A stretch of DNA of 64,000 nt from Stylophora pistillata. Its lineage: Eukaryota. The first letter of the stretch is position 1; every line of letters starts with the position of its first letter. Below, one piece after another: positions 28,901 to 59,929 of this stretch. The notes below the pieces were generated by a model. The model did no database searches, had not been told where the DNA came from, and saw only the letters and a list, made by a program, of their open reading frames with translations. Where the stretch lies: positions 306,035 to 370,034 of the forward strand of contig NW_019217823.1 in NCBI RefSeq assembly GCF_002571385.2, in the 5' to 3' direction. The position numbers and the translations under genes were made by a program.

Positions 28901-31900
28901 GGACAGGACTGGAGGTTTTGTATGCTGGCAGCTACAATATTCTCAGACATTTCAATGAAGAACGAGACAAAAGGTGAAACAGAACTATCAATAGCAAAGA
29001 GTATTATTTCTGTTCGCGTTTTGAAGGTCAGAATTATATGACGTTAACGCAGGGGCAAAAAGAAATAGTGCTAAGGCTATACTGACAGTAATTATGAAAC
29101 GGGCCATTAGTGGATCAAGGAGATCCCGTCTTAGTTCAAACTCGAAACTTTGCCAGCCAAGTCTCTCGATCCTATCATAGTCTAATATAAAGGTCATTTA
29201 TTTGTTATTTTCCCCAAACAGAAATAAGGACAGAGGCAGGTAGTAGCTTGGCGTATCTTCTAAAAGATCCCCAAGTACGTAAGACTCCGGAGTGCAAGGC
29301 CATCATTCAGAGCCAAGCCGAGAAAGCGCTGTTCTCTCCTGATGTAGAAACCAGGACGTTTCTGACCCATTCTTTGAGTGAGAACATAAATCGGGAGGTA
29401 GAACTTGACACAATACAGCACACCAAACACCTTTCTTGGAAATACAAGACTCAGACACTGGAAATCAATGATACAACCATAAGTAGAAGCTCGACCTGCT
29501 TTGTGAATCATGCCATGTTCCAGAGACAGAAGGTGGCCGTTAAAGTTCTCTTGGTGAAAAGGCAGCATCTCGTGGAAGAGAACCCAAACCCTTCGGCTAA
29601 GGAGAGTCTGAAACGAGAAGCCGAAAACCTGAGACTATTAAACAAAGAACGGCAGGCAAAATTTCCAGTTTTGTTGGCATATGACACTAAAACTCTGCCA
29701 TACCACCTCATTACCGCATTTGAAAAATCAGGGGACCTGTTGCAGTTTCTTCGGAGGTCGCGTGGGAGAAATCCTCCTCTTCAACCAGTCCAGCTCATTA
29801 AGATGCTGTTAGATATCACTGACGCTCTCCACTTTTTAGAAGTAAAAGGTTTGGTTCATCGCGCTGTAATGGCGGAAAATGTACTCGTCGGAGACAATTA
29901 TATCTGTAAATTGAGTGGCATGCAACACCTTCGGCAGGTTACCAGCCAGGGTAAGACATGATTGAAGCTTGATNNNNNNNNNNNNNNNNNNNNNNNNNNN
30001 NNNNNNNNNNNNNNNNNNNNNNNNNNNNNNNNNNNNNNNNNNNNNNNNNNNNNNNNNNNNNNNNNNNNNNNNNNNNNNNNNNNNNNNNNNNNNNNNNNNN
30101 NNNNNNNNNNNNNNNNNNNNNNNNNNNNNNNNNNNNNNNNNNNNNNNNNNNNNNNNNNNNNNNNNNNNNNNNNNNNNNNNNNNNNNNNNNNNNNNNNNNN
30201 NNNNNNNNNNNNNNNNNNNNNNNNNNNNNNNNNNNNNNNNNNNNNNNNNNNNNNNNNNNNNNNNNNNNNNNNNNNNNNNNNNAACCATGCCGACCTCTAT
30301 ATATATATATAGAGGTCGGCATGGTTTCAAAATTTACGATTACGAAGACTTTAATACTAGCTCTACGTTTTTAAGGTGAAAAATGGTTGGGAGATCCTGC
30401 CTTCTGAGCGGTGTTTTGAAGAAAAGGAATACCAACTGATGCAGCAGTGCTTTCAGTTCCATCCAAAAAAGAGACCCAAATTACTTGACGTCCAAAAAAG
30501 CCTTTGCGAGATGAATGAAAATGCAGGTGATTACACGTGTTGACCTTACTGGCACGTAGACGCTTCACCAACACTCAGCAATTATATCATGAATAATTCT
30601 AGACATCAATAGTTGCTTGTAAAAAGAATGCCCAGCTTGACATAAAAACTATAATACATAACTGTGAAATTACAAACGAACTCTAAACGATGAAAAATTG
30701 TGCTACAACATAGACGTGAAAGTTAAAATCGAAGTTTTTTCTTTTTCAGACGAGGAACAAGCACGGCTTGACCCACCTCCCCTTGACTTACAAGTCACAT
30801 ATGAATTTGTAAGTTTGGTTACTTTATTCAATTTAATATCGAGTGGACGCTGCGAAATTCGTTAAATATCAACCGAATGTATTGACCAATCACAAACTTA
30901 CACTCTCATATCGTATTGAAAACCTTATCCCAATAAAAACTTGAAGTAAACTGAGTCAAACGACTCCCCTCGAGTTTCCTCGAGTTTCAAGAGGAATTAT
31001 TAATGACTACATTTGCTATGGATTAATTAGTCATTTTTGTTTTCTAGCCTGCACGAAATGCTGAAGATATAAAAAGCTTTTATTCAGGTACACGTTTATT
31101 GTTGTCAACGAAACAGCTATGTCATTCTTTATTAATCGGCCTCAAAGGCGAGCCAGAGAGAAGAGTCCCCTTTCAGTTTATTGGACTGAAAAAAATGTGT
31201 TGGGTCGTGTTTGTTGTTGTGGTTGTTTTGTTCTGCTTTGTTTCTTTGTTTTTTTGTTTTGGTCTTTTGTTTTTTNTTTTTTTTTTTTTTCATTTTACTG
31301 ATTTTCTTTTGTTTTTGAGGTGTTTCAGTTTAATTATTTCACTGTGAAAGAGAAAGTGATTGAAAGTTCATGTTATCTTGAGTAGAATAAATCGGGTAGC
31401 AACGAGTTTTTTGTGATAAAGCCTTTTATCGCAACTATAAAAAAAAAATTGGATTTCTGCATTTTATAATTGAGTAACAAGTTTCATTCCTTAGATCCTG
31501 TTTACGAAGACTGTAATTTCCTGTCTACCGAGCATGACCAACCTGCGTCAAATGGTAAAGTGTGATTTTAGTTTCCGACAATAAAATTGACAGTCCGACC
31601 TACTGACTGATAGACGAACTAACTGTCTGATTATCATTAGTTATCAAAGTGAGCTTACAACTGTTACTTCTCTTTCAATTTTTTTCCCCTCAGGTCTTTA
31701 CTATGTACACAACTTGGTGTCAGATGAAGAGAGAGCAGNACATAGTCATGATCAATTCAACTATTTACTTTTTTTCAGAGAGCCAATGAAGTCCTGGATT
31801 ATGAAGTTATGGCTGCAAAATCATGACAAAAGTAAATGGCCAGATTTGTCCATCCGTCAACCACAAGATGCTTGCCATGTAACAAATTCAGACCAACACC

Positions 31901-32868
31901 CCTCTAGCGATGTCATAGAGAAGATGTGCTCGCCTGACTTCTTCTCCAAGCACGAATACAAATACGTCAGCCGCACTTTTTTTACGACAAGCAGCGACGA
32001 TGACTACTCAAAAGCATACGGAACATCAGACATGCAAGAGATGAGGAATGATTTAGAGTACCAAACAGCTTGTGGTGAATATACAACGGAAGAAGGAACC
32101 CCAGAGCTTGTGCCAGTCCCCGAGCCACAAAAGACACCCAACAACGATGAATCTGGTTACTTATGTCCTGTTTCAATTAAAATTGAAGATCTGAGCTCTA
32201 TTGAGAGCAACCAGGGAAATGTTAGCGGCGTAGCAGATTTCCCAAGAAGCCATGAACAAAAAAACGTAGTCTCCAGTACAGGAACTTTTTATCTTCAAGT
32301 TAAAAAGGTAAAGAAAAGAGTTGAAACACATGACGTCAGTGCAATCGAGGCGAATGAAGACAAGGTACCACTGATGGATGACAAACCTCATTTGAATTAC
32401 GTCAATCTGGGGCCACAGCCAGATCAACATCACGCTGCCTTTTATCAAAAGATTGAATTAGTTCCCAAAGAAGGGAGCTGTGAACTCGAAGAAGATGCGA
32501 AGAAGGCCGCGGCGGCTTGTGAGAAACCAACTGAAGAAATGAATGGAGCAGTTTATTGCAAAGTCAAGAAGACGAAAAATCCGCACGAATTAAAGGACCA
32601 GCTGGTTCCCCTGAATCATCAGTTGTATGCAAACGTGGACGCTAGCAGTGTTACGACGCATACCTTGCCACTCGCAGACATGGAAGGTGAACAGTCTGAC
32701 ATGGAAACTATACATAAAGAAATGGAAGCGGAGCAAAATTTCCGTCAGACAGACGAACATTCGTGGAATACAGTTCGCGAAAAGTATGGTGCCGAGAAAA
32801 ATGGAAGTAACTCTTCCCTTCCAGTTTGGTTAAAGGATCCCGAATTAGAGGTCGTGTTTTATGTTTAA
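22949..32868 (+). CDS. Gene B: paralog of gene A, incomplete in this assembly (APE exon in the N gap; pseudokinase 2 exons absent)
   Basis: Exons: putative start 22949-22964 (ATG TCT TCG GAC GAC G|gtaagt), 27622-28445, 28805-28973, 29222-29950 (VAVK, HRAVMAENVLV, KLSGMQ), [gap 29974-30282], 30376-30526, 30750-30808, 31048-31087, 31495-31554, 31694-~31738 (ends at 'n'), 31779-32868 (EPMKSWIMKLWL...KWPDL box and Tyr-rich tail). The start exon is inferred from phase and from the equivalent 16-nt exon in gene C. Confidence 0.8.
25483..27226 (+). repeat. Near-identical 536-bp direct repeat flanking an N gap (probably an allelic overlap artefact)
   Basis: 25483-26018 versus 26691-27226 differ by a few SNPs, and both copies abut the gap. 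Confidence 0.85.
30283..30326. repeat. Perfect 44-bp palindrome centred on (TA)n, adjacent to a gap
   Basis: aaccatgccgacctct-atatatatatat-agaggtcggcatggtt. Confidence 0.8.
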
Positions 32869-35606: not shown

Positions 35607-38600
35607 ATGGAAGGACATGGCGGTAAGTTCTCATTATAAAACCGAATCCTCGATGTCTTTTCTCAGTCATTCTTATTCAAGCGGACCCAAATACGAAGTT
35701 TTAAGCGTTTATTTGGATTTTAAGAGTCTTGTTTAAGCGAACAATCTCAAACGTGATATTGTGCTCTAAAAATCTCACTTCCCCTTGGATTGAGCTATTA
35801 GTTTCTGCACTCACAAGCTCGAGTGTTAACTGTATCATAATAAATGTAGTTAGCAGTTTGAAAGATTCACAATTTCCAAATTCTCCCGACAGTAATTCAT
35901 GGTTAACAATAAAGTAAAATCGATCATCTTTAGAAACTATATTAATTGATCTAGAAACTAGCGATAACTCATGCCTTGTATCTCATGTTTATTTGGCTTT
36001 ATCGCTTATTTCGCGCATCATTGAATATAATCTCAACAAGTTTGTTACGCATAGCTCTAAAACCTTTTAAGCAAGACTTTAAAAGAAGAAAAGATTTGAA
36101 GATAAGAAAAGATTTCTTCAAATTTTCCTTCTAGGAATTTTAACGGCAGTTACAATGGCCAAAATTGCTACTTCTTAATTTGCGTTATCAAATAATTATA
36201 GCAGTGCTTGCAGTTTGGTTTGTGACAGTCAGCACTTCCGACACCAAAGAGAAAGAGAAACTCGATAACATTCCATCACATCCCGCCCGGATCAAGGGAA
36301 AAGTCCCCCATTATAGGACTTCCTCTCTAACCTTGACATTAAAATCAGTAGTCTTACTTGAATTAGTATTAATAGATTGTTTAGAAAAATTAAGTCAACC
36401 CTGACACTGACGCTTCTGAAGCTCTCGGGGACTTAACCGTATGTTTTATTTACCTTCTGCTCAACGAAGGGGTGCAGTAAAGGAATTTACATGAAAGCTA
36501 AAAATTATCGAGACGTTTCGCACCCAGTTGTTCAATCGACTCGTACTCAAGCTTGAGTCGGTTCGTGCTCAAACCGCGGGTCGATTCGTACTGAAACCCC
36601 TGTCTTTGAAATTAATGGATCAACAGGAAAGAACATCGTGTAGTGACATCAATGCAGTCAAAATGAGATATTCTCCAATAGTAATGTTTGCAACATTTGT
36701 GCAATGAAAGAAGCGTGAGATATTCCCAATGAAAAGTTTAACTCGCACTCTCTATTATTTATTTTAAGTATTCAAGCAGACTTCGGCTGCACCGACTGTT
36801 TATGTTAACTACATCACGAAAATATCAGGGAGCGGTGCCACAGCTGTAGGACCAGGCGCTCAAGTTAATAATTTTCAGACAGTTCCATCAAGAGGTATTT
36901 ACATAATTGTGCATGCGACTGTTCCATTATCAACTTGCTGATAGAAGTAAGAAGCTCTTCCAATGTGTTTAACTTAGCCTTACCTATTCTGCTTTCAAGA
37001 CTGATAAACGCGCAGCATGATAAAAAGGGACATGAAAGAAGTCATAAAGTACAGCTTTCGGATGAATGCTTGCCCTTTATTTTCGCACCAACAAAATATA
37101 GGTGGCTTTATGTATTATGAATATGAATTGCTTGTGATTATTAGGTATGGTGCTTATTACCCATTATGTTAATTAAGTGGTCACACTACAACTATAAATC
37201 ATCCAGAGGTTTATTTGTTAAAAATTATTATTAATAAATTTTCAACAATTCTTCCAGGTTCAAAATAATCTCAGGACACGACAATAACCTCTTAACAACT
37301 ATCTATATCATTTTAAAAACCTTCCTTCATTAGCACTGAAGACTATATACAATTAACCACGGATATTACTCTGAAATAGCAGTTGAAGTTGAAGTCGAAA
37401 GCAGAGATTCTTACTTGCTACTAAAATGCCCAATGTGGATATTTTTAGTTGAAAAGACGGATATTAAGATCCTCAGGCAAATTTAAATACTAGGAATCGT
37501 AATTAAACGAGAAAAGTAACCACTTTGGCTATAGGTTTCATCCTTTACCAAACCCTAGACTTGTAAAACTTGAATTCAGATTTTTCTCATTTGAACATTT
37601 CCATATAGAGGATATCCGTGTTCATCCAAATGACGCGAATGTTAGCCATGGAGGTGCAAGAAACATTAACGTTGGGCGAGAGGAGCAAGTATATCAGGAT
37701 ACGTACACATACGAAGGGGCCAGACCAGGAAGAAGATCTTCCGCGTCTGAAAGGAACCCAGGCAGTTATTGCCTTCCCAACGTCACAGAAGAATATTATC
37801 AGCAGCGGTTCGGCTCAAAGTGGACGCCGAAGCCAACTAAATTCATCGATAGACAGCAAGGTAAAATTTTAAATGAGCCTTGGTAAGAGCCTAAAGTCAA
37901 GTGAGAAAATATGGTCGAGTTGTTGTAAATCGTTTAAACCAAATCACCTCAATTTTTCCTTTTTACTTCCTTTCCCTGCTTTCTATATTTTTTTTAGAGT
38001 GAAGCCTATTACTATGGTAATGCTGATCCCACCCTTTGTTTGGGATTATTATTGGCCGTGTGAGTCACACAATATATGATGAAAAAACAGGAAGGATTCA
38101 AATTTACCATTTACTTTCGTTTTCGTTAGATTGTGCAGATGAAACTTTGTCTAAAGAATCATTTCTACAAGATGTCGATAAATCTCTGAAAGAATTTGAA
38201 AGTTCAGGTGGACCGCTGAAGGAACAAAAGAAAGAGGTCATACTACTGCAGGTCCTGCCTTATCTTGAACAATCGTGGAGAAAAGCGTCTTCACAAAAAA
38301 TGGACGCGTACATGATCCTTGCCAAACTAAGCAGTTGCAAAAGCTGTGGTGAAGTTGCAAAGCATGCTTTGCAGCAGTTTCAGTATCTGCTCTTTAGAGA
38401 TAACCTGGACAGCTGCAAGGAGAGCTTGCTAAAAGTGGAAAAAATTGTGAGATCTTCCATCATCTCTTCAGACGCAGTATTCAAGGAAGAAGCAGACTCT
38501 GCGCGCGAAGTGAGACTGTCTGTGTACAAGCGCATTCTATCCCTAATATGCATTCACCAAATTCAGGCAAGTTTCTCCACAGTTGACTTCAAACAAGATT

Positions 38601-41600
38601 TGAAAAAACTGCAACAAGACCTGAAACAATACTGCACTCAAATCTGCTACAAAAAGAAGAATTATTTCCGTTACTCCATGGAGTTCATCCAGGGGGCAAT
38701 CTCCTACTTGTTGAGGGGGTCCAGTAGAGCGACTGCGACAAACTTGGGCGACTGTCTCGACAACTGCCGTTCTTTGCTAGAAGACCAGGAATCTGATGTT
38801 ATGCAAGAGTTTCCTGAGAAACTCAAGAAAATTGTAAAGAAAGCAAAAGCGGGAGATTGGTTTGACCTTCACTGCGTTCTGTGTTATCTTCACGGAAAGG
38901 TGTGCGTTCCTTTACACGGCTGCATGCTTGTTCTTGTATCAGACCGTAGTTCGCAGCATTCGTCTGTCTGTATATTTTTCTGTCTTTCAGTGTTTCCATC
39001 AGTTCGCTGTCCATCTCGCTATTCTCCCGTTTCCATCCATATTTGAGTTATGGATGCACTTGGGAGGTTTGCTTAACACTCAAGAAGCTAGAGTCGCTCT
39101 CGGCTATCGCCTCGAGCGACTCTTATGCTTCCTTCGTGCTTAGTAACCTCCCGCGTGCATCCATAACTCAATAGTGTACGCTGTGGTGTTTACCATTCGT
39201 ATCCGAATGACCTATAACTTTATCATTTCAGGTGCATAGTGAACGTCCTACCCCAGAAATGTGTATCGAAAGGCAAGCCTTAATTCTTTTCAGGCGTATA
39301 GTTGAAGCCTATCAAGAAGGAGGCGGAAGAGACGACTGGAGGTTTTGCCTGTTGGTAGGCTCTCTTCTCTCAGACATTGTTATGAACAACATGACGAAAG
39401 GTATTCCGGCACCCAGTCAAAACTGTTAAGTTTGTTGTAGTCTCGTTCATTTACACCATTTAAGCACATCTTAAGCATATTTTTCTTTGAACAAATTTAT
39501 ACTGACATCAGTCTTTTTTTGTTACCAAGAATTACGAATCGAAGCAGGTGGCTGTATGATAAATCTTCTAAAGGACAAAAAGCTTCAGAAGAAACCAGAA
39601 TGCAGGGTTATCCTCGAACGTGTGTCGTCTGAAATGCTATTCAGTCCTGATCCTGTCACAAAGATGCTTTTCGCCAACCAACTCCTTGAAAATCAAAGTT
39701 TCCAACAGCCCCTTCCTGAGGACCTCCACGTTCAACATCTTAGGAATCGCTACCGAAATCAGACACTAGAAATCAATAAGCCAACTATTAGCCAAGGACA
39801 GAAGTATTTTGTTAAGCATGGTATGTTTCAAGGGAAGGAGGTGATTGTGAAAATTCTTTACGTCACAAAACAAGATATCTTGGCCAGTGATTCTCCCAAC
39901 CATTCAAGAAAGAGAGAAAAGATCATCTCTGAAGCCTACAGCCTACGTCGCCTGCGCTGCTTCAATCACCCAAACATTGCTATTCTGCTCGGCTGTAACA
40001 CTAAGAGTCTACCTTATCACGTCATCACAGAATACGAGAGAAACGGCAACCTACTTCACTTCGTTCAAGCTTCACGACGGAACGATGAGCTCCTACCGAC
40101 GGCTATGTTACTTGAGATGCTCCTTAACATAATTGAAGCTCTTCTGTTTTTGGAGAATCACGGTCTGGTACATCGCGCTCTGATGGCTGAGAACATCCTT
40201 GTGGGAGATGATTACCGATGCAAGTTAAGTGGCATGCATGCATTACGAAAACTTCAAAAAGGAACCGCTGAGGATGGTAAGCCGTCAATTGATAGTTCTG
40301 CAGCTAGTAGACTTCACGGTGATCCAGAAAAGAATGCATTCTCTCTAGGCCCAAAAATTGACCTTAAACCATGTTCAAACCAGATTTAAAAGTTTTCCTC
40401 ATGATTTTATGCTGAGGAATGTTCTAATGGCGTGACGTGGTTTTCCACTGAATTTTTGGCTAAATGTTTGCTTGATGAAACCATCCCACTCCACTCAGAA
40501 TTCCTGAAGGTTATCGACGTAGATTAAAAATGATTCTTTAATTCAGTTACCTACGATGGACTATAATTCAACCTATACTGACGAGGGATAAGTCCGGCGC
40601 TTTGTGACGCCAGAGTACACTCCCTGAAATAGTGGACAAAAGTTTCACTCAAAATTCATGCTTCATTTTACTACTGGGGCAATAATCCTGAAATTCATGA
40701 ACTTGCAATGACATTTGTAATTTTTTTTTATCAAGGTCGCAATAACGACGAAATGTACGACTACTGTACGTCCGATGAATGTTGCCTGGAAGTTGTATGC
40801 GATGATGATGGAGATGAATCTGTAAGGTCGAAAGCACCAGAGTGTATTTTGAAAAAGAGCTACAGCACTGCCTCTGATGTGTGGGCCTTTGGTGTACTCA
40901 TGTACGAGGTTTTCACATATGGATGCCGCCCATACAGAAACATTCCAGGCGATAACGATGTTGCTAAACATGTAAGTGCTGTAATTTTTGTTTTAAGGCT
41001 AGAAAAAGTCACCTTCCAAGTAATAGAGCAGTCAGTGAATCTGTTTGGATCATATTAAAGAAATAGCACAAAAGCAAAGGGGAACAGTAGCTTACGGTTT
41101 ACAAAGGTTTAGTGCTCTTTTGTTAGGAACCCTACCACTGCTGAATGCCAAAGTGTTGAACTACCTAAGGACTACAATTGATTAAGATGGATAGAAATTC
41201 TACTTGGACTGTATATTAGACACGTTACTAAGAAGAAGCTTATTTTGCAGGTTGCATACAATAACGGTATGCCACCATGTGAGTCGTGCTTCCAGGATGA
41301 AGAATTTGCATTAATGAGGAAGTGTTGGGAACGGAACAGATCAAGGAGGATTACACTTTGCAGTTTAAAAGGGGGGTTGCAAAAGTTGCATGAGATCGCA
41401 ATGGACCCAGAATCAGGTAACTATATCTTATGAGTAAAACGATCAGTTTTGAAGGATCACTGCCAAACGAAATAAATAGAAACACGGCGATTTTTTTAGG
41501 TATAAAACCATTCTTCATAAGAATGAAGTGGGACTACACTGCAGTATCTCATGTTAAGGTTTGCCACGTTCTTTTTTTTTTTTTTTTTTACAATGATGAA

Positions 41601-44600
41601 CGTTCCATTTTCAATACCTTACAGAAGAGAAACCAAGAGATAACCCACCACCGCTGGACATTTGCATCAATGACGTAAGTGCTGAATCCCGATGTTAGTT
41701 TTCAAAGCGTTTTTTGTACACGAATGACACACGTTAAGTTATAATTTTTTCTCTGGCACAGAATGAGCTCAGCACGTCAGCCAGTCTCTGAGTCATACAA
41801 TCAATTGATCACTCAATCAGCAAATACAGAAAAAGATGATCATCTCAATTGCATTAAAATCTAAATATACCGAGGAGTACTGATCTGGACCATAAGGACG
41901 CAGTCAATGAGCCATAAAAGGCGCTCAGATCAACTAGGAGGGACCAGCGCTTTGAATAGGCCTAGAACCCCCTTTGACATCCTGAAATAAATTATGTTTT
42001 GCATCGAAACCTTTATAAAGAAACTTTCTATTCAGCTTCAGTCGTATTTTTTTCTCTAATTTTACCAGAGCTGATGTGTGCAGTTTGCAAGTTCTCCATA
42101 GCTTTATCGAGTCATTAATTTTTCTCTTTAGAAATTTTGCCAATGTGATGAAAAAGGTGATGATGCACCCACAAGATATAATGAAGAGGTTAGTGGGACC
42201 ATAACGAAAATTTCTCATAAAAAACATTCTTTAAAGGTAACAAATATGCCCCATGCTCGTGACAACGCTTGGCGAAAATAAATACTACACAATAACTTGT
42301 ATGCGTCCAGGTTCCTTTATTCTTGTAAACAACGACCACGACGATTTACATACGAGGATCTATCCGGCGATGATTCGAAGTTATTGCTTCTTACAGGAAA
42401 GCCTAAAAATACTTAACTGAAAACTAAACTCGGCAAAAAAACGGCAAAAACACGAGCAACGCAAATGGCATGGGAAACTGCGCTAAGTATTTTGTCAGCG
42501 ACATTATACACTGTAAATAACAAAGGGTGTTGGCCTTTTTAGGATGGTCCTTTGGTAAAGGAGAAGATTACAAATGCAGACAAAAATCACTTGAGAAGGC
42601 TATTCAAACTGAACACCCCGCCAACTCTCGCAAAGATTTCGAAGATAGACAACTTGGACTCTCATTATCCAGTTGTGGAGATTGTAAGTAACACGTAAAT
42701 GAATTATAAATATAGTTAAAGTGTATCATAAATACTTTTGTTCTTGGGCCATCATAATTTGATCAAAAATAAGACACAAACGGCAGTGATAGTTAAAGCA
42801 GAAGAGAGTACACAATAAAGCGATATTCATCCTAATGTCAAACGGTTGCATAGTAAAACAATTGCTTGACGTGCATAGTTATGGTGATTGTGCCCATTGG
42901 AAGAAGACATTGTTCGCGCTCAATCGAAGTATCGAATATATTACAACTAGGGACGTAACCATTTGTTCGACTGGCTGTTCCCTAAGAAAGTTCCATTTGT
43001 AAGCCCGGTCCTATTGGCGTACAGGCTGGCTACCCAACTATGAACAGTACTAGTCGAAGAGGGCATTCTTAGAGCTAAGCTGGAGTATCAGTTACATTAG
43101 AACTGATACACGTTATTAAGCGTTTGAATACATCCAGGTGTACTTCAGGAAACATCTTTTCATTCATAACAATTAGTTAATATCATCACAGAGAATTATG
43201 GTCATTATCAGGGGAGGACGCATGCTCTAATTTCCCTATAATTCCTCTTTTGACAGATATCGACGGACCCTCCTCTTGGAAACCTCAAAGATTATGTTCT
43301 GAACAGACGATGTCAGCTTGGTGACATTGTTGTGTTCCTTTCACAAGTGGCCTCTGCCTTGCACTTTCTCCACGTAAATCACATCGTTCATGGAGATCTA
43401 CGAGCCGAATATGTCAATGTTGTAGCACCGGACAAGGTAATTATAACATAACCAAAGTAAAGTGCGCGCTCTGATTGGTCAATTCAGCGTCCACCATTTG
43501 CCCATGGGTGTACGCTGCTGACGTGAGCAAATGCAAAGACTATTTTTCCGCGCGCGCTTGTTTTTTCTGGTCACGTAAGATTTTTTAAATTAAAGGGAAC
43601 TCTTTAGCTACAATGTATCAATGTTATGTTATGAAACAAATGGTAAACACCACAGCGTACACTATTGAGTTATGGATGCACTTGGGAGGTTTGCTAAGCA
43701 CTCAAGAAGCTAGAGTCGCTCTCGGCTATCGCCTCGAGCGACTCTTACGCTTCTTTCGTGCTTAGCAACCTCCCGCGTGCATCCATAACTCAATAGTGTA
43801 CGCTGTGGTGTTTACCATTTGTTTTATAACATAACATTGATACATTGTAGCTAAAGAGTTCCCTTTTATTTAACAAATCTTACGTNNNNNNNNNNNNNNN
43901 NNNNNNNNNNNNNNNNNNNNNNNNNNNNNNNNNNNNNNNNNNNNNNNNNNNNNNNNNNNCATCAGTTTCAAACTTTTGGTATACAAAATGGTTAAGACAG
44001 CAAGCTCAGGATATGTCATGATCAGAATCGCTGTGAATTCATTTGTTATTCTTGTATCCATTGATCGAGGGGATCAAAATGTAAATCCTGTTTTAGTGGC
44101 ATATAAGAGTTTATCCATGCACGGTCGCAGATGAAATTAGACCTGTTGTATATGTCAACATTATGATATTTTTTGAAGACATATCGTACAGATTGAGGAA
44201 AAGGAAGCGGCGAGAAGTGACTCTTAGTCCTTTGATCGTTTTGTTGACTTCATCTTCCCATTAGGTCCTTCAGTTTGCAAAAATTCAAGACCGAAGCGAA
44301 AGACCGAAGGCTGTCATACCTAATGCATGAATCGCTCTAGGCGAGATTTAAGTTGCTGATCATTGACAAAAGCAAAAACGAAAAAAGGAACGAAACTTAC
44401 GGATTCTCTTTCGAATTCCTTGACGTCGAAAGCGTTCAGCATAGATGAAAGGTGAAACTTTTTCTTTAGCTTCCGCTGTAGCGGACAATATTGCGTAGCG
44501 AAGCGACAAAAACAGCGTGACCAACCCACCATCTAATGGCTGCTACGTCAAGATGATTTGCGTCCGTACGACAACAGGCCCCCCGTGGTTGTAAAGAAGA

Positions 44601-47600
44601 GAGACCTTGGTAACGAGATTGAAATATTTGGAGCGTCGTCAATTTTCTTGTTGAGGTGTAAGAAGGCGTTTAATACAGAAAAAAAATGAAACTTTTTCTT
44701 TCGCTTCCGAAATGGCAGACATATTCTGTGGCGAAGTGCCAAGAACTGGGTACGTGACCAACAAGCCATGTATTGGCTGCTACGTCAAGGTGATTTGTGT
44801 CGGTAGCTACGACAAAAGGTACCCCCACGAAAGTTGGTAAGAATAGAGAGTCTGGTGACGAGATTAGGACGTTTAATTGTCAAGGTGTATGTAGCAATAC
44901 AACCCTAACTTGCGTAAATTCAATAACGTCTTTATCCTTCTTGTGTGGTCGAAGGCTGCTTTTTATGGACTCGGTGAGTTTGGGTCCTATACCCACAATA
45001 ACATCAGCAGTCTTGCTCAGATCTACCTCGAGTTCGTGCTTCTTTTCGCCGTCCGTCATCTCATGCCGACCTTTCTTGAACATCGCAATCTCTTCACTTG
45101 AGGTGTGCACAACGTGCACTCGTTTGCATTTCCGTTTCTTCGCTAAGACATTAGCTGGTGTTCCCAACTTGTGTCCATGACCCATTACTACGTCGATTTC
45201 ACATTCATCGGGTGGATAAGACAACGATTGGATACCTTCAATACCAGTCATTTTATCGACCTTGGTAAGGTTTACTCCATGATTTAAGGCGTCTTCCTTT
45301 TCCCTCTCAGTGTACTCTGGCACAATCAAGGTCACCGATACATCACGCTGTTTAGCCAGTCCTTTGCATAGCTCTCTGTTAAGGGTTGACAGTCCACCTT
45401 TTGATGAACGCCACTCATCCANNNNNNNNNNNNNNNNNNNNNAAAAAAAATTACACGCTTCTGAATTGCTGAAAACGGGTGCAATTCTCATGCAACACGA
45501 GTGCAAAGTTTTAACACGAGTGCAAAATAGCGCGGCGCACTGTCAAGACTTCGTCTGTCTTCACCTTCTCTGACGCTTTTTTCATGTAAATATTTAACAA
45601 GTAATAACATGATTTCGAGTGCAATTTGGTGTAAATAAGCACTTTTCAATTTTTTAAAGAATATAAATTGCACTCGCCCTACGAGCTTGTGCAATTTTGT
45701 TGTCTTCAAAAAAATTTATTCGTACTCGTTAATTCCAATTACATTCGAAATCCTGTCATTACCCATACAAAAGGGTAGGATGAAAATAACTTTTATCCTT
45801 TGTTTAAAATTACAATAAAAGAGTGAGCAACATTACAATTTAAGAGTAGGATTTAGCGGTGGAATTTCATTTTGATCGAAATATATTGAGATTCCGACGG
45901 ATTAGATTCTGCCGTAGGAAAACGAATTGAACGATTTGTGGAAGGTAGGAGATCTGGGGAAGGTAGGGGCGAAATTATTTGACTGCAGGGGGCAAACTCA
46001 CAAAGACGGTAAGGGGTGAACAATGAAGTGAAACATCCAGATACCCAGATGGACAAACATTTCTTAGACCCTTTTTTTTCTATCATCCGTGACAGATAAG
46101 TTGCAAATGGGTAATAGCTGGAGGTTTCCATTCTCTTAACATGATAACATACCCGTCGTCCACTGGTCCTACTGGTCGACATTTTCTTCACGGAGTCAAA
46201 CGAAGACCTAGGAATTAAAGACATAAACATTATCTCTCAGGATATTTCATTGACCTCAGGGTCAGGGATGATGAATACTCTGTTGTTTATATACACTGTC
46301 AGGCAGAATTATTAAATAAACTTCCCATCCCTACAAGTTAATGTAACTTTCGTGTGTCTGTGCTGTTTTATAAGTAAAAATTGTTATTGATTGAAGTCGA
46401 ATATTTTGAGAACAAGCGCAGAGTAAGTGCCTGTCGTAAAGACAAATTCATCTCTGTCTGAGTACGGCTTTGCTTTGCTGTGTCCGCTTCCGCTGTTTTA
46501 GGATTTCATGTTTTGTTGTCTGTGCTTGACTTTCTAAAAGGGTGAAAATTAATGGTTGTACTTAAGATGTGCGAGACAGTACAACTGAGTTTTGAACCGC
46601 TTGTAATCCAATATCTTTGTCGTTTGCAGAGATTTGAGGACAGAAAGTTAAGCAAAATGTCTAGGATCTTTGAGTATTGACCTTATTTCACCTTAATTAT
46701 TCAAGGTTTCTCAGAAATCAAACTTGGGGGCCGTTAGTTTCAATCGTTGTTGTCTGTTGTTTACTTTCTATGTGGTTCTCGGAAAGCGAGATAGATGATA
46801 GATGAAAATTAAAGGTTTTCACCCAAACTTATAGGATTTTTGGAATCGCTAGAAAAATCTGGCGTCATTCATAGCGTTTCCAGAAATGTGAATATAACGA
46901 GATTTGTTTTAAAATTTAAGCGGCATGTCACGCATTGTTCATTGGTCTTCTTTACGCTTCATTATCTAAGGTTAAGAGTAGCATTTTTCTCAAAAATCAA
47001 GCTTTTAAACGATTTCAAACTTTTAGCGACTGCCGTAAAATTTAAGAAAATGGTTAAGGCAGCAAGCTTGGGATACGTCATGATCAGAATCACTTCATGA
47101 ATTCATTTGTTATCCTTCTATATGCCTATCCATGCCGTTGATGAGAATGAGGGGATTATGTGTATGCGTTCACCCGCAAGACTGAATTCAGATTTGCTGC
47201 AAATGTGATCATGAAAATGTCTTTTCAAGACATTTCGTAAAGGTTGGGGAAAAGGACAGCGGCAAGGACTGACTCTTAGTCATTTGAAATTTTGACCGGC
47301 TGCGACATACTCATTGGGTCCTTAAGTCTGCGAAGAATCAAGGCAGAAAACAAGATAGTCATACCTAATGAATGAATTGCTCTCTAGCCTACTATTTAGT
47401 TGCTAATCATTGATAAGAAGGGAAACAAAAGAAGGAAAAACTTACGGATTCTCTCTCGAATTCCTTTACGTCGTAGGTGTTCAGCACTAGACAAGGATGA
47501 AACTCTTCCTTTCGCTTCTGTAATGGAAAAGAGCCTTGAAGCATCAGGTAAGACGTGACCGGCAATTTGCCCCAAGAAGCGGTGAGTAGAGAGACCCTGG

Positions 47601-50600
47601 GTCATACCGTGACGTCATAGTATTTATCGTATTACAGTATATGTAACTTGATTTGAGAACGATTAGTTGAGTTTGTGAACGTACTTGTTTTGGATATTCT
47701 TATGAGAACTAGAGCCACCGGAATATTGGTATATAAATTCATTTCATATTGTTTCTCTTTTGTATATTCTGTTACTTTTCGAAGTACATCAAATCAGCGT
47801 TTTGTGATTCATTTCAGTTGAACTTTTGCTTAATATGAAACCAAAGTGTTTAATGTAAATGAGCGCGACAACGAGCGTTTGAATTAGTTTGTCCAAAACG
47901 TTAACACTGTGAATGAGATTGAAAAGTTTTGATCATCGTCTTTTACTTGATTCTATGAACCACACATGTCACGCGACGAAGGCAGACGTAAAAGGATTTC
48001 AGAATGTAGGTCTGTTGTACTTAAATTCAAATTACCGGTTGACTGAAATTGGGAATAAAATCTCTTTGAGTCTAAGTTCATACCAGAACTCAAGTTATAT
48101 TTGACTGGTCCTGAGATCAGCTGTAATTGACTAAGGCGATGAGTGCAAGGCAGCCAGCAGTCTTACCGTAAATATCTTGAACAAAAGCTCATCTTTCAAA
48201 CCGGCAGTCTAAATCCCACAGGGATCAACGAACGCTTTTCATTCCACTAATTTATTCATGTTTGTCTCGTTGCCATGTTCCCANCATTGGAAGAAGACAT
48301 TGTTCGCGCTCAATCGAAGTATCGAATATATTACAACTAGGGACGTAACCATTTGTTCGACTGGCTGTTCCCTAAGAAAGTTCCATTTGTAAGCCCGGTC
48401 CTATTGGCGTACAGGCTGGCTACCCAACTATGAACAGTACTAGTCGAAGAGGGCATTCTTAGAGCTAAGCTGGAGTATCAGTTACATTAGAACTGATACA
48501 CGTTATTAAGCGTTTGAATACATCCAGGTGTACTTCAGGAAACATCTTTTCATTCATAACAATTAGTTAATATCATCACAGAGAATTATGGTCATTATCA
48601 GGGGAGGACGCATGCTCTAATTTCCCTATAATTCCTCTTTTGACAGATATCGACGGACCCTCCTCTTGGAAACCTCAAAGATTATGTTCTGAACAGACGA
48701 TGTCAGCTTGGTGACATTGTTGTGTTCCTTTCACAAGTGGCCTCTGCCTTGCACTTTCTCCACGTAAATCACATCGTTCATGGAGATCTACGAGCCGAAT
48801 ATGTCAATGTTGTAGCACCGGACAAGGTAATTATAACATAACCAAAGTAAAGTGCGCGCTCTGATTGGTCAATTCAGCGTCCACCATTTGCCCATGGGTG
48901 TACGCTGCTGACGTGAGCAAATGCAAAGACTATTTTTCCGCGCGCGCTTGTTTTTTCTGGTCACGTAAGATTTTTTAAATTAAAGGGAACTCTTTAGCTA
49001 CAATGTATCAATGTTATGTTATGAAACAAATGGTAAACACCACAGCGTACACTATTGAGTTATGGATGCACTTGGGAGGTTTACTAAACACTCAAGAAGC
49101 TAGAGTCGCTCTCGGCTATCGCCTCGAACGACTCTTACGCTTCCTTCGTGCTTAGTAACCTCCCGCGTGCATCCATAACTCAGTAGTGTACGCTCTGGTG
49201 TTTACCATTTGTTAATTGTGGTCTAGTGACTAAACATCTGCAATAACCAGGGTTTTAAGCTTTATCACTTGTTCTGATAATGTGCAAGTGATGCAGCCAC
49301 AAACTGTCCAAATATTTAGGTAGAAATAGAACGAAAGTGACACCAGCCTTTTTAATTATGTGCAAGTTTGGTCCAGTTTGGTTTTGCTAAGTTATTGTTA
49401 TTTTTTTTTTTATTTGTTTGTTTCTTTGATGTACAAGAGGGCGATGAACATTTTCATTTAATCCAGGGAATAAAGGGTCTGTAATTCTGTAATATATGTA
49501 CTCTTCAGCTTTTGTCGCCTTGCATGATTTCTATTTACTTTGTTTTTTTTGTGTTTGTTTGTTCCTTTGTCGAGGGCATTATGGGATTTTCTTGATGCTG
49601 TCAAGTAATTAGGCTCAATTTCAAACACACTATCATTCTAAAGGACCTCCTGACTCTGATTTTGCGTTTCTCTTTTTCGTTTCATGTTTTACTTCGTTTT
49701 GTGTTTGGCTATACCCCCTTGTGTTGTACATGTTTTATTGTTCTTGTTGTTGTTGTTTATTCCATGTAAAACAGTGGGAATATTTTTTGTTGTTTTTTGA
49801 AAACAGCATATTTAGCTTAAGGTAGCATTGGGTGAATACTAGAACAAAAACTAATAGAATATAAGAACTAAAGAATGGTATTAATAAAAAATGTTTAAAG
49901 ACTTTCTTTAAATTTGTTACTCACAAATTGACAGAGACTTCATGATCCATTGCAGGTTGAAGTAACCCGTTTTGGTCGCTCCTTGCTTTTACCAAAAAGG
50001 GCGAATGAAAGCACTTCTGCCTCATGTGTAGTTCAGCGTAATATGCCACCTGATGCAACGCGATGGTAAGTAGCTCACAACGAGACAACGGAATATGTAC
50101 AAAGTATCAAGTCGTACTGCATTGAAAATAACAATTAAATTTTCAGACAGCGGTATTCATGAACTGTAGCGAACGCATCTAGGTGTTGGACTAAGTGATG
50201 TATGAGAAAGGGAATGAAAAGCATCCGCTATGAATTGTACTGCTGATGGAACATTAAATTCTTAATCACAGAGGTAACTTCATGCTTGAATACTCCGAAT
50301 TTCTTCTTCTGCGCGTAGCTTTTATCTCAATAATAATTTCATGTCCATTTCATTTTGCAAGAGTTTGGCCTTCAGACATTCACAGAGTTGTTTGCGCGTC
50401 GGAATATTTAGAATTTTAATTGGAAATACAACCTACTTTGTTCCTTAGAATCGAAAAACAGACCGCATTCAATAAAACCCAGAACAAAGTTACTCGCATT
50501 ATTTTTCGAACTCTTTACAATACAAAAGTCAATATGCTTTGTACCCAAGAATTGCAGGTACAAAGCAAAGTTTCGTCGATAAGTCTGAGCGTATTTTGCA

Positions 50601-53600
50601 GTTGCCACGCCAGAATATTACATACGCATTACTGAATGACAAAACATTCTTCATTTTCCAAAGCATCTCATTGAAATGGGAACAATTAAAACTTAAAACC
50701 CCGAAAAATTAAGCCTTTAAACACTTTAAAAACTGAATTGACTGCTGTGAAGTTCGCTTGTAAACCTGTTCTTTAACAACAAAATTAATTCACATTTCTG
50801 GTGAAACTTTGCACAAGACTTACATTGATAAGTTCCTGCTCCTTGTCTCCCGTTTTTGATTTAGTATCCAGCGAAGAAAGAGTCCGGTAACGAGAAAAAT
50901 CGTCCACGAATTATCACTTGTACAGTTTTTTCTAATAACTCGGGCAACTGGCGTTTTATATCAGGGGGGCTCCCTGTTATAATCCAGGGTTCATTTGTCA
51001 ATCATCGACAGCCATTACTAACATACCTCACCCCAGGCAACGTAGAATGCTAAGGTTTCAATAACCAGAATATAGAAATAAATGTCAGTCATGAAAAAAT
51101 CAAGAGCTCAGTGCAAAAGTTTAAGTTTTGAATTTAAAGACCTAATCAATTCAAGCCAATTAATTTGTGGGTTTACTGTGCATGATTTTAGTAGCTTACT
51201 TCGTACGAGGAAAGTCATTTGAAAATCTGAAAGCCAGCGTTTTTGCTATCATTCTTATTTCGAGAGGTATTTTATCAACAGCGCGTTGACAGCTTCATCT
51301 CAATTGACACCTGCTCTCTTTACTTCAACAGGAGCGCACCTGAGGTGATCCAAGACAATAACTATTCTCATGCTAGTGATGTTTGGGCTTTTGCGGTCCT
51401 AGCTTGGGAACTGTACACTGCCTTTGCAACAGGCCAGGAGCATAGGGACTACTCGATCCCTTATCGTAGCCATGCTGCTGAAGAGGTTTGTTCGTTGAAA
51501 AAGTTACGTTTGGACGTAATAATGACAATAATAAAAATAGCTACCTATGATGCACGATCCTCGCAGTAAAGAGCTCTATTTATGCAATAGCGAAAAATAT
51601 ATGAACTTCATAGATTCATAGTAAATAAAAATATCATTAATGATAATAACAATCGTCTTTATTGAGTCCTAAGATGAAAAACCACATATCTGATGTTACC
51701 AAAAAAATTTCCGAAAAAAAAATACCACTTACTCTGTTAGGTTATGATAAAAATGTAGTTGATAAAATAGGAAGGAAGTGCAAATTGGATTGTCACTTAG
51801 CTACTTGATTCACTCAATTTGCTCTCAATTTATTAGTATCGAAATCTAGTTGTCTTCTAATTTTTGTTACGTCATGGGTCCTAAAAAAAGTAAAATGGCA
51901 ATTTGGATCATTGGGACTTAGGCCACGATTCTACGATTAGGAATAACGGAGGAAGGGGTGAGAAAAGAGACTTGGGCCAACCATGAATTGGAATGCGATT
52001 ATAATCCTCCCCCCTCCCTTAGATGCAACAGATCTCGATTTAATGAATAACAATATAACAACGAATGAAAACCCGATTAAAACAGAAGTAGCGTTTAAAG
52101 AGGAATTTCAACCTTAACTCGAATTGAATACCTTGAGAATAAGGTTTTGATTCCCTTAAATCTAATTGAGTGATCTTCTTATTAGGTTATTCATCAAATT
52201 AGAAACGTTGGGCCTCTATCACGACCAGACGGCTGCCCTGATTGGGTGTATATTGTGATGCATCAGTGCTGGGCATTCGACCCAGTACAGAGGCCTCCGT
52301 TCATCGCCATCTTTGATTGTCTCACTACAAGGTGAGTACACAATAATGCACTAATTTTGTAAATCAGAATGATTCTTTGAGAACGGTAAACTGTACCCAA
52401 CTGTGTCCATAAGTTGAACTTGCGAGAGCCCAGGGAGACTTTTTGTGAGGATGCGAGCAAGGCATGGCTCGGTAAAAGACTCGGACTAAAGTAATCAAGC
52501 GATTTTCCGACCTCATTTTACGCCAAACTAACTCAAAGAACGAAGAAAACCGATGACAACAGAAAAACATCAACATTCAATTTAGGAATTATGCTGTATT
52601 GCTTTGTGGATTTTCCGGAACTGAGAACAAGTTTCTCATATTTTAAATTTTATTTAGACCTAAAAGAACTCAAAAGGCATACCATTTGGCAATACTAGAG
52701 AGTTTTCACTGAAAAGTGGGTCCGACCCTCCACGATTCTTAACCACTCGTAATCAAATATCTCGTCTCTCATAGACAACCAATGGACTCTTGGCTTATGT
52801 CATTGTGGAAAGAGCGCCACGAAAAGAGCGAATGGCCTGACCTACCAATTACTCAGACTGAAAACGCCTGTCACATCATCAACAAAGACAAAGACTGTAT
52901 TAAGGACATCATAGAGCAGATGTGTAACGATGGTTAAAAGCTTTCAGAACACGATTAGAGTTATGTTCTCGAAAATGCCACAAATCGAGTGGACGATGAA
53001 CTGTATGATGATCTACCTGAAGAGTGCTCCAAACTCTCTCCAGATGTGATAGAGCAGGAGACGTATGAAGACGTTTCCTCGATCAGTCGACCTGACTGTA
53101 CTTTTGACGAAAAAAGAGTAGGGAGACCGACAGGCTCCAACATTTCTTCCACTGAGCCTCGATACCAAAATGTAAAGAATTTCGGCCCCAAGAACATTAC
53201 GGGTCATAAACAAGAACAGGAGCTCTACGATGACCTCGTTTCCCCGGAGGTAGTAGAGGTGGCACAAGAAGAGGAAGAAACGTACGATGACATCAGAGGT
53301 GAAGAAGAGGCGGGCGAAGAATTCTATGGTGATATTGAAGAACGATCTCGCGATCCTCGCTACGGAGCGAGCAGAGATAAGCCTTCTTCAAAAGGGACTA
53401 ACTCCCCTTTGAACACCAAGAGTCAAGAACCTTCTTTGGGAGAGGACAATTACTCATTGGACAAAGAAACGGACCAAATAGATTTAGAGGATTTATACGA
53501 GGACATCGACAATCTCAGGCCACCACCGTATGCAAAGGCTTGTAATGTGACAGAGGAAGAAAATGTTGACTCACTAAACGCCAGCTGCGATCCCCTAGGG

Positions 53601-53915
53601 GGTGTTCCCCGCTTGAACGAGGACGAAACCCTCTATGAGGAAATAAGAGGAAATCAATCAACAGATTCGGGGGCGTACCAAAGTACTACAGGTCCCCAAA
53701 ATGATCAAGCCACAAGGAACCGAGATGAAACAGGATATGGAGAACTTAACTCAAGAGAGTCGTACATGCATCTGACAGGACCCAAAGCAAATTCCAACTC
53801 AAAGGAAACCGGTCCGGTAATGAAAAACGCTGCAAAGCTAAACAACCGCAGGTGCTACCTCAAGAAAAAGGAAACAGTTAATGATCAGCTTGTCAATACA
53901 ATTAAGGAACCTTAA
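35607..53915 (+). CDS. Gene C: paralog of gene A with RHIM-like N-terminal exon; premature stops at 52935 and 52956 ahead of the Tyr-rich tail (truncated allele or young pseudogene)
   Basis: Exons: 35607-35622 (MEGHG|gtaagt), 36769-36894, 37609-37860 (WTPKP motif shared with gene A exon 8845-9009), 38130-38899, 39232-39400, 39530-40276 (VIVK, HRALMAENILV, KLSGMH), 40736-40971, 41251-41416, 41625-41674, 42132-42236, 42543-42683, 43257-43436 (second copy 48647-48826; HGDLRAEYV), 49956-50065 (TRFGRS), 51332-51485, 52186-52331, 52775-53915. The 180, 110, 154 and 146-nt exons match gene A in length. Confidence 0.82.
42895..49212 (+). repeat. ~930-bp direct repeat (42895-43822 / 48285-49212) containing a gene C exon and bracketing a gap-bounded insert
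   Basis: Constant 5390-nt offset. Identical except within the hairpin repeat. The second copy starts right after the 'n' at 48284. Confidence 0.9.
44912..46182 (-). pseudogene. GT4 glycosyltransferase paralog, 5' portion only
   Basis: ATG exon 46182-46153 (MSTSRTSGRR|gtatgt) sits in the same context as 59883-59848. Coding 45420-44912 reads DEWRSSKGGLSTLNRE...DVIEFT, then jumps into non-coding repeat. 44912-45107 is nearly identical to 56354-56549. Confidence 0.75.
48829..49214. mobile_element. Hairpin-bearing interspersed repeat (other copies 43439-43822, partial 39043-39197, ends only 15748-15816)
   Basis: Shared left end ttataacataaccaaagtaaagtgcgcgctctgattggtcaa. Long imperfect palindrome ttgagttatggatgcac...gtgcatccataactca. 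Right end tttaccatttgttaa. Confidence 0.75.
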
Positions 53916-54844
53916 CATTATGGAATCAAACATTGAGTTTTTTTCAAAATGAATGACGCGCTAAAGGTGCACATGATTAACAATCGTACTTAAAAATGTA
54001 AGTCGGGTGCAAGGAAAGAAAGGCAGGTGAGCTGCTAGTGAAGAAATGTCAGTAACGAAGCCTGATAAATTCAGTTTCACCAGAGTTCGAACCCGTCCTT
54101 TTAGTTAGTCGTTGCTTCCTCCAACTGAGCCACGGAACCACACGTTGGGAAGGAGGCAAAGTTTAAAAGGTTTATCTTCCCCCTAAGGGAATTTGATCAC
54201 AATTAAAACAAATAATTATTTTATTTTATATTTTATCAATATCTATTTCTGTCATGTAATTTTGAAAGATAGGTCGGAAAAGACAAGTTCTGGTTGCCTA
54301 GCAACTATATTTACAATTTTGAGTCCAGAAACGCCAGAGTTTCTTTTAGTCTTGTAAATAGTTCCTTTTTTAACGAGAAAGCGTGAGAAATCAATATTTT
54401 TGCATTTTTTCTACGATATCAACGAAAACAAAAAAACAATTTTCTTCGCTTATTACATGATGGAAAAAATCTTCAATTGCAGTTATCAATTAATGGAATA
54501 GACAATTACTAAAGACATTGATGTAATCAATTCTCCCCCTTTATGCAAACCAATTGTTTTGAAATGAAATTCAACTGTCAACCCTTCAACTCCAAGAAGT
54601 GATTAAATAAGTAACTTCTCCAAACATTTTCAACACATTTCTCAGCAAACAGTTGATGAGAACGTAAAAACATATCTGCATTAGGACGTTATCTAGATAA
54701 AACACCAAATTATCCTCACTAATTTTTAAAGATATGCATAGCAGCTCATAGGGAGAATTCAGTGCTAATCATATTATGGAAGTAAAAGGGTTAACTGAAA
54801 GAAATGTGTAAACATAAGCTTCTGCTGTGCAGGTGTCTCAGTTT

Positions 54845-55070
54845 GGAGACAGTGTGGCCGAGTGGTTAGAGTGTCGGACTCGTAATCCGCCGCTCCCGGG
54901 TTCGAGTCCCACCCTGACCACTGGATTTGTTTCACGGTAGCCCCGAGTTCAGATCCTTGGTCACGCTTGTAAATAGCCAACTGGTTTGCCTCCGGTCGGT
55001 TGGGATTCTTAATGATGTTCTTAATGATGTTATGTTCAATTTAGACCATTTGTTTCATTTGTTTGCACGG
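54845..55070 (+). mobile_element. tRNA-derived SINE
   Basis: A box tggccgagtggttag and B box ggttcgagtccc, followed by a non-tRNA body. Confidence 0.8.
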
Positions 55071-59883: not shown

Positions 59884-59929
59884 TTCCTTTGAAGAGTCAA
59901 CAAAAGCCCTAAAAATCAAAATAAAAACA

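Follow-up and report, generated by a model that had tools for sequence, protein, structure and literature searches.

In the pseudokinases PEAK1, PEAK2 (Pragmin) and PEAK3, Src-family kinases phosphorylate tyrosines of a disordered region, to which Grb2 or Csk is then recruited (PMC10279719). Comparable docking sites are found in proteins of other types. In ADAP, the phosphorylated sites pYDDV and YDDI pull down Nck, SLP-76 and other proteins (PMC2908683). Acidic YDDV, YDDI and YDEV motifs stand, several to a chain, in disordered regions of ADAP, nephrin and Tir, which are ligands of Nck and SLP-76 SH2 domains (PMC2908683, PMC4238058). LAT has a chain that is acidic and disordered, with several tyrosines to which Grb2 binds (PMC9333988). 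Here we analyzed a stretch of 64,000 nucleotides from the coral Stylophora pistillata (contig NW_019217823.1, positions 306,035 to 370,034 of the forward strand), hereafter the window. Its + strand contains three genes that are related to one another, namely A at ~8.9-21.1 kb, B at 27.5-32.9 kb and C at 36.8-53.9 kb. From their sequences we propose, with a probability of about 65%, that they belong to a family predicted to be catalytically inactive whose tail tyrosines would be phosphorylated by a separate kinase and would recruit SH2 proteins specific to each paralog. The coordinates are collected in Table 1.

The members of this family share a short disordered N-terminus, a ~370-residue all-helical domain, two tyrosine-kinase-like domains, a box of ~65 residues and a tail. 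As in the PEAK proteins, a kinase fold devoid of catalytic residues is combined with a long disordered region. PEAKs differ in that they contain one pseudokinase, a SHED domain and N-terminal disorder, whereas the coral family has two pseudokinases, a HEAT-like head, the box and a C-terminal tail. As to the SHED dimerisation helices, which flank the pseudokinase in PEAKs, the box comes after the second domain and its first helix (~473-481) alone was modelled with moderate confidence. No PEAK structure appeared among the top 50 structure matches listed. The PEAK family is our closest working model, but membership fails on the order and number of domains.

The exon translations of gene A match S. 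pistillata LOC111322652 (P0012). Relatives were found in Oculina, Pocillopora, Acropora, Montipora and Desmophyllum, as well as in Nematostella vectensis (LOC5519088), and the range of corals and sea anemones given here is based on such named records only. When a helical-domain exon was searched against 1.84 billion representatives, 39 matches were obtained; 5 were retrieved, one of which was unrelated while most others were fragments. In the tree, gene C groups with Oculina P0001 and P0009 (support 98/96) and gene A with Oculina P0002 (98/99). P0014, P0013 and P0010 make up the B class (94/99, slightly below our support bar), in which the window gene B was placed through its tail alignment, and the acroporid sequences form a separate clade. 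A divergent branch comprises P0021 from Stylophora together with P0011, P0017, P0018 and P0019, the last three consisting of the head and pseudokinase 2 only. P0014 (LOC111322654) is an additional B-like copy from Stylophora, not identical to the window gene B and listed with a contig of the same length as the record of gene A; the array likely extends past the window, or P0014 represents a second haplotype. The Oculina C and A orthologs (P0001 and P0002) are listed with the same length of the longest contig (25,581,907), which suggests that the A-C linkage is conserved in that coral.

Both kinase-like domains match Pfam PK_Tyr_Ser-Thr and the folds of Syk, JAK and EGFR, and both are predicted from their sequences to be inactive. 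In pseudokinase 1, the Asp residues of HRD and DFG are each missing from 12/12 aligned sequences, a count which omits one row that was misaligned and had no such domain. In pseudokinase 2, the DFG Asp is absent from 17/17 rows and the catalytic-loop Asn from 16/17. Degeneration of both domains is also seen in the Nematostella protein. Since both domains lack key catalytic residues, the kinase that would write on the tails is likely a separate one. An acidic Tyr occurs in the activation-loop region of pseudokinase 1 in all three genes (DYDY, IYDY and MYDY; 11611-11650, 30320-30350 and 40735-40790) and may be a regulatory phosphosite. We dropped a candidate SAM domain between the kinases, since the segment corresponds in the model to the N-lobe of pseudokinase 2.

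The tandem arrangement recalls that of JAKs: JAK chains figure in the upper ranks of the structure matches and one relative is automatically named JAK2-like. The coral proteins differ in that their second domain is also degenerate (DFG Asp 0/17, Asn 1/17) and in their docking tail, which JAKs lack. Pfam matched neither a FERM nor an SH2 domain in 42/42 members, and the head is all-helical in the model.

The preliminary description of the window, made from the letters alone, had depicted the last exons as a conserved box followed by hypervariable, acidic tails rich in tyrosine motifs. The box is real and extends to H-x-Y-x-Y-V, but its ACH element is present in only 2/3 copies, gene A reading AIH. 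The tails that follow it are 356, 299 and 315 residues long and are indeed acidic: D+E accounts for 15.4% (A), 18.1% (B) and 22.5% (C) of their residues, and the net charges are -29, -24 and -35. The three window tails cannot be aligned with one another (z = -0.3, 0.7 and 1.1; 200 shuffles), as had been stated. Ortholog tails, in contrast, do align, with z = 13.8 for A, 75.8 and 51.3 for B, and 21.9 and 18.7 for C. The tails are thus class-specific and conserved rather than hypervariable. Across classes, the best scores were z = 6.7 and 6.1, which P0013 gave with two Montipora tails, followed by 3.9. Neither are the tails rich in tyrosine as such, since Tyr amounts to 4.0-4.8% of the window tails versus 3.2-4.4% of the remainder of the proteins; Phe and Trp are depleted. 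The motif sites that had been listed were all found in the last exons, 22/22 in total (C 10/10, between 53004 and 53774; B 7/7; A 5/5). Comparison with composition-matched shuffles, together with conservation, gives strong support for the C tail, moderate support for B, with two to three conserved Grb2-type sites, and weak support for the window A tail.

Gene C provides the clearest case. Its tail contains Y[DE][DE][ILV] six times, versus 0.11 expected from global shuffles or 0.22 from local shuffles of 20 residues. The same number is found in the Oculina and P0009 tails (local expectation 0.21-0.23 over the three), none of 20,000 local shuffles reaches six, and the enrichment holds after correction for 66 tests. 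Yxx[ILVM] is likewise in excess (10 versus 2.3), as are acidic residues ahead of Tyr (9 versus 3.3). Across orthologs, the listed tyrosines are kept in 10/10 cases versus 0/5 for the other tyrosines, both in Oculina P0001 and in P0009 (Fisher p = 0.0003 each); the list had been drawn up without sight of orthologs, and the tyrosines kept are precisely those in a context of SH2 type. An origin of the motifs from recent DNA repeats was ruled out, direct and tandem repeats being absent from 52760-53920. The idea that YEEI would be a single optimal Src site did not survive, as the position reads YDEV and YTEI in orthologs; given this drift, what is conserved is the Y-[DE]-[DE]-[ILV] class and not one site.

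The C-class tails hold acidic tetrapeptides identical to those of ADAP, nephrin and Tir (YDDV, YDDI, YDEV), several per chain. They also resemble SLP-76 and ADAP by their several Y[DE][DE][ILV] sites, six per tail in three C-class tails. Unlike these proteins, the coral family has no SH2, SH3 or transmembrane segment and its motifs sit on a pseudokinase pair; homology is not shown. A PEAK/ADAP-like scaffold, by analogy, is the likely type. A stretch of ~45 residues, beginning with a YQN-type site and finishing with an acidic Tyr site, is repeated once in the tails of P0001 and P0009 and so is found there in two copies, against one in Stylophora C; tail valency may change by duplication of such units.

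The C tail also bears a dual-tyrosine motif of a type common to class A. The pattern G-Y-[KRG]-[DE]-[LF]-x4-6-Y-x-x-[LP], drawn up afterwards, is present in 6/6 A and C tails (5 distinct genes) and in 0/9 others, and a relaxed pattern for the ITAM (immunoreceptor tyrosine-based activation motif) gave p ~0.02 in each C-class tail. A true ITAM reads Yxx[LI]-x6-8-Yxx[LI]. The C-class spacers are of 4-5 residues and the window A copy is degenerate, so that only P0002 (6) and P0010 (7) fit.

The B-class tails are of another kind. They contain no Y[DE][DE][ILV], and their recurrent motif is YxN[ILVM], the Grb2 consensus, which is found 2, 3, 3 and 2 times in the four tails versus 0.11-0.13 expected (p = 0.0001-0.006). 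For the window copy alone the figures are 2 versus 0.12 (p = 0.005), and Yxx[ILVM] reaches 5 versus 2.2 (p ~0.05). Plain YxN is weaker in the class (p = 0.02-0.14). The window YQKI corresponds to YQNI, YQNM or YENI in relatives. In the window A tail, YxN[ILVM] occurs twice (p = 0.009), both copies coming from one 42-nt tandem duplication. The motif list that had been given for A fared poorly, with listed tyrosines kept in 2/6 cases versus 6/11 for unlisted ones; the Oculina A tail contains Yxx[ILVM] 9 times versus 3.2 expected (p = 0.002). The notion of paralog-specific motif sets stands for C versus B, each keeping its own motif type across species, but not for assignments of single sites nor for the A list.

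Outside these classes, Y[DE]x[ILVF] was counted 5 times in the tail from Nematostella versus 0.68 in local shuffles (p = 0.00025). The acroporid linkers between the two domains hold 0-2 Y[DE][DE][ILV], P0003 having 2 versus 0.09 expected (p = 0.003). The tail of P0050 (Nematostella) displays the sequence PPPLPPRPP and some ten repeats rich in proline that are missing in coral tails; these repeats are not significant against local shuffles (11 versus 7.3). C-terminal PDZ ligands were considered and set aside, since tail ends are not conserved within classes.

The B-class tails, which keep 2-3 YxN[ILVM] sites by a pattern chosen post hoc, are reminiscent of LAT. LAT differs in being integral to the membrane and in having no folded signalling domains. 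No transmembrane segment was detected in 6/6 proteins scanned, among which there was no full-length B-class protein, the highest 19-residue hydropathy being 1.26-1.59; Pfam searches of the long members returned only kinase families and one HEPN, with no SH2 or SH3. The family proteins are predicted to be cytosolic. Of the LAT/SLP-76-type adaptor analogy proposed at first, the LAT part is to be given up because LAT is transmembrane, and the cytosolic type is retained, ADAP or PEAK being nearer.

The N-terminal head was modelled as all-helical in a gene C ortholog, with a mean predicted local distance difference test score (pLDDT) of 88. Foldseek returned a best E of 0.011 and no match at E <= 0.001. 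With VIA-align, the best Z was 11.5 (a designed protein) and the HRS VHS domain gave Z 10.2 (root-mean-square deviation 3.9, 140 aligned), scores that fall inside the range expected for generic helical repeats. Matches of the head in Pfam were all sub-threshold, its ESM Atlas scores did not exceed 0.80, and box and tail found no usable match in ESM Atlas. On the basis of the model, the head appears HEAT/ARM/VHS-like by generic likeness only, and a new fold is not indicated by these searches.

A difficulty that the preliminary description had overlooked is that the gene C tail frame (52959-53915) is cut off from the box by two in-frame stops in this assembly. The gene could therefore be truly truncated here, as a nonsense allele or a pseudogene, with a tail functional in other individuals and species. 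Besides the stops themselves, at 52935 and 52956, such a truncation would fit with the lack of a named Stylophora record for gene C among the protein-search matches listed. On the other hand, P0006, an 846-residue protein from a 4,040-nt contig, is 96% identical in the last exon and has Tyr at both stops. Its contig covers exons ~14 kb apart, from which we infer that it derives from a transcript. P0006 also equals Oculina at three neighbouring residues, so that the window state is the derived one. Furthermore, 15/16 differences between the window and P0006 in the last exon fit A-T or C-G swaps, versus 17-46% expected (P <= 7e-5) from simulations at transition/transversion ratios of 4 to 0.5 with changes to stops excluded; controls gave 15/38, 44/123 and 51/113. 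This pattern is unlike natural divergence in the window, where transitions form the largest class in long repeat pairs. The tail frame is moreover open over 318 codons, and the S. pistillata assembly was haploidised and gap-filled (PMC5730576). Both stops are likely an assembly artefact, and we consider a genuine truncation unlikely. We also rejected a 57-nt GT-AG intron (52933-52989) that would skip both stops in frame and match the start coordinate given for the tail at first, because its GAG acceptor has no pyrimidine tract, H-x-Y-x-Y-V would be lost and P0006 is colinear through it.

How could such proteins work? In the reading that we favour, the helical head and the pseudokinase pair would serve to recruit the protein to a receptor complex or an active kinase, where a Src- or Syk-type kinase would phosphorylate the acidic tail sites in trans. 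SH2 proteins would then assemble on the phosphorylated tail. Through its six Y[DE][DE][ILV] sites, C would make multivalent contacts with SH2 domains of the Nck, Src or SLP-76 type, the two to three YxN[ILVM] sites of B would bind Grb2-type adaptors, and the dual-tyrosine motif of A and C would bind a tandem-SH2 protein. With different motif sets and different SH2 partners, outputs would differ from one paralog to another. The earlier view of the tails as substrates and scaffolds for another tyrosine kinase fits the degenerate domains and the conservation of the C tyrosines (10/10 versus 0/5), the phosphorylation itself being putative.

Several points weigh against this proposal. It presumes, as general background, that corals have Nck, Grb2, Src and Syk. 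As assembled, gene C terminates ahead of its tail. Pseudokinase 1 retains the beta3 Lys and the helix-C Glu, and pseudokinase 2 retains the HxD Asp in 9/17 rows. The disorder check called for earlier agreed with a disordered tail, the pLDDT being below 50 over residues 482-845 of the P0006 model, but such a value may also stem from a shallow alignment (19 rows). When the sequences are aligned with a matrix that ignores Tyr, tyrosines exceed the background conservation less clearly: 9/14 (p = 0.04) and 8/14 (p = 0.08) in C, over a background of 35-37%, 5/15 (p = 0.45) in A, and 7/12 (p = 0.28) and 6/8 (p = 0.06) in B. In B, listed and unlisted tyrosines are kept in 6/7 versus 2/5 cases (p = 0.15) and in 4/7 versus 2/5 (p = 0.5). 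None of 6 patterns is enriched over shuffles in the window A tail and acroporid tails are mostly without enrichment. Finally, 1-3 relatives per class were at hand, and the YxN[ILVM] and dual-tyrosine patterns were picked after viewing the sequences.

The tails could also be phosphorylated and yet act as decoys or brakes, absorbing Src/Syk-type kinases, SH2 proteins or phosphatases and damping signalling. The same motif conservation would be expected, and SH3-ligand motifs are not enriched in coral tails. Src prefers substrates with acidic residues before Tyr, and those preceding the C tyrosines (9 versus 3.3) would suit a kinase active site as well as an SH2 domain. Nevertheless, B and C retain distinct motif types across species, which a generic sink would not require, and a decoy role seems unlikely to us. 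It is very unlikely, in our opinion, that the motifs act unphosphorylated, be it that they serve as sorting signals of the Yxx-hydrophobic type or that their aromatic residues are stickers within an acidic, disordered region. C does have an excess of Yxx[ILVM] (10 versus 2.3) and the head resembles the VHS/HEAT domains of trafficking adaptors (Z 9-10), but the six proteins scanned have no transmembrane segment and these Z-scores are those of generic helical repeats. For stickers, conservation at +1 to +3 would be unnecessary, and the tails are poor in Phe and Trp. Could one of the kinase-like domains be active in an atypical manner, the protein phosphorylating its own tail? Both domains are well conserved, the first retains Lys and Glu, and HGD or HRD is present in pseudokinase 2 of all 8 A-, B- and C-class rows. 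However, the DFG Asp is missing in both domains and the first is also without the catalytic Asp. The second lacks the catalytic-loop Asn, its model begins at the strand preceding helix C with no Gly-rich loop seen, and the acroporids have lost the HxD Asp. We regard self-phosphorylation as highly improbable.

Table 1. Coordinates of the features in the window (position 1 is its first nucleotide)
Feature	Position	Strand	Basis or remark
Gene A, family architecture	8901..21126	+	RefSeq LOC111322652 = P0012; last exon 19866-21126; 5' end approximate
Gene A, degenerate copy of dual-tyrosine motif (GYKDF...YCIP)	20542..20583	+	motif comparison
Gene A, 42-nt tandem duplication yielding YINV twice	20606..20689	+	repeat search
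Gene B	27450..32868	+	last exon 31779-32868
Gene B, linker exon	31693..31739	+	cut by single N at 31739; pseudokinase 2 exons absent at junction
Gene B, tail motif starts	YVNL 32398, YQKI 32443, YANV 32626	+	
Gene C: helical head, pseudokinase 1, pseudokinase 2, box, tail	36783..53915	+	tblastn with Oculina P0001 and P0006, tree; 5' end approximate
Gene C, exons covering most of the all-helical (HEAT/ARM/VHS-like) N-terminal domain	38135..39400	+	tblastn; end approximate
Gene C, end of helical domain and pseudokinase 1	39514..41412	+	Pfam PK_Tyr_Ser-Thr; HRA for HRD, SGM for DFG
Gene C, pseudokinase 2 (exons 42543, 43257, 49947, 51333, 52186)	42543..52332	+	HGDLRAEY for HRDLxxxN, RFG for DFG
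Gene C, box at 5' end of last exon	52775..52967	+	PMDSW 52779-52793, IEQMC 52911-52925
Gene C, in-frame TAA	52935..52937	+	Tyr in P0006; likely assembly error
Gene C, in-frame TAG at conserved H-x-Y-x-Y Tyr	52956..52958	+	Tyr in P0006, P0001, P0009; likely assembly error
Gene C, tail, acidic, predicted disordered	52959..53915	+	translation, shuffles, ortholog comparison, model
Gene C, tail motif starts	YDDL 53004, YEDV 53064, YQNV 53163, YDDL 53226	+	
Gene C, tail motif starts	YDDI 53283, YGDI 53325, YEDI 53496, YEEI 53634	+	
Gene C, dual-tyrosine ITAM-like motif (G-Y-G-E-L, 5-residue spacer, Y-M-H-L)	53733..53774	+	type common to class A
Gene C, basic motif AKLNNRR close to C-terminus	53832..53852	+	KLNNRR invariant in three C-class tails
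GT4-conflict glycosyltransferase copies, PF20706	58030-59175, 55745-56605, 44880-45542	-	E = 2e-95, 5e-63, 1e-45
tRNA-Thr	54848-54919		ARAGORN

The assembly is damaged at other places of the array. Gene B has likely lost its pseudokinase 2 through an assembly gap; that it would naturally be without this domain is unlikely, the exon being broken at an N and the domain being present in 3/3 B-class relatives (P0010, P0013 and P0014). In gene C, the pseudokinase 2 exon at 43257 has a near-identical copy at 48647. These exons belong to a pair of segments, 42895-43823 and 48285-49213, with 99.2% identity over 929 nt, which N gaps adjoin (43886-43959 and 48284) and which likely represents a haplotype or scaffolding duplicate. 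At 22173-22382, N are interspersed with called bases as if two conflicting sequences had been merged, a further sign of assembly damage. Two inverted copies (99.5% over 546 nt) lie on either side of an N gap at 13075-15223; the frame found there presumably resembles the end of a Penelope/GIY-YIG-type element, without Pfam match.

The neighbourhood includes three copies of a GT4-conflict glycosyltransferase gene, the third of which sits in a gene C intron. Related repeats at 43960-47520 match 59741-62343, and the predicted tRNA-Thr may be the head of a tRNA-derived short interspersed nuclear element. The divergent Stylophora member P0021 has an N-terminal DZIP3-like HEPN domain (E = 9e-55). Because GT4-conflict genes stand next to and inside gene C and because of this HEPN-bearing member, an immune context is at most suggested for the family. 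A parallel may be drawn, by analogy only, with the plant tandem kinase proteins Pm24 and Sr62, whose tandem kinase/pseudokinase domains are reported to serve immunity. The plant proteins belong to another kinase group, and we know of no tyrosine docking tail in them. A tempting, though rather doubtful, extension is that of a coral and sea-anemone signalosome, in which a HEAT-like sensor and a dead kinase pair would read an upstream and probably immune signal while the tail exon couples each tandem paralog to a different partner: Nck/Src for C, Grb2 for B, and tandem-SH2 kinases for the motif common to A and C. If so, C with 6-8 equivalent sites would form the nucleus of condensates like those of LAT or nephrin, but with no anchor in the membrane, and the GT4-conflict neighbours and the HEPN-fused P0021 would mark an animal counterpart of the plant tandem-kinase immune proteins.

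We did not find this family described in the literature covered, which consisted mostly of openly available articles and included passages of a paper on the holozoan tyrosine kinome (PMC8662651). The working principle is known, and what we found undescribed is its embodiment in one protein with a helical head, a pair of degenerate tyrosine-kinase domains and a docking tail particular to its class. The automatic names of the members, which are otherwise 'uncharacterized' in databases, follow active kinases (JAK2-like, Fes, ptk6) and are misleading in what they imply, and two likely assembly errors conceal the tail of gene C and the second domain of gene B. The Nematostella gene LOC5519088 opens the family to testing in a model animal, and the tails are ready bait peptides for the study of SH2 wiring in cnidarians. 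Pseudokinase scaffolds that dock phosphotyrosine readers are known from vertebrates with the PEAK proteins. If our proposal is true, an animal group that branched off early would have made such adaptors separately and diversified their output via the tail.

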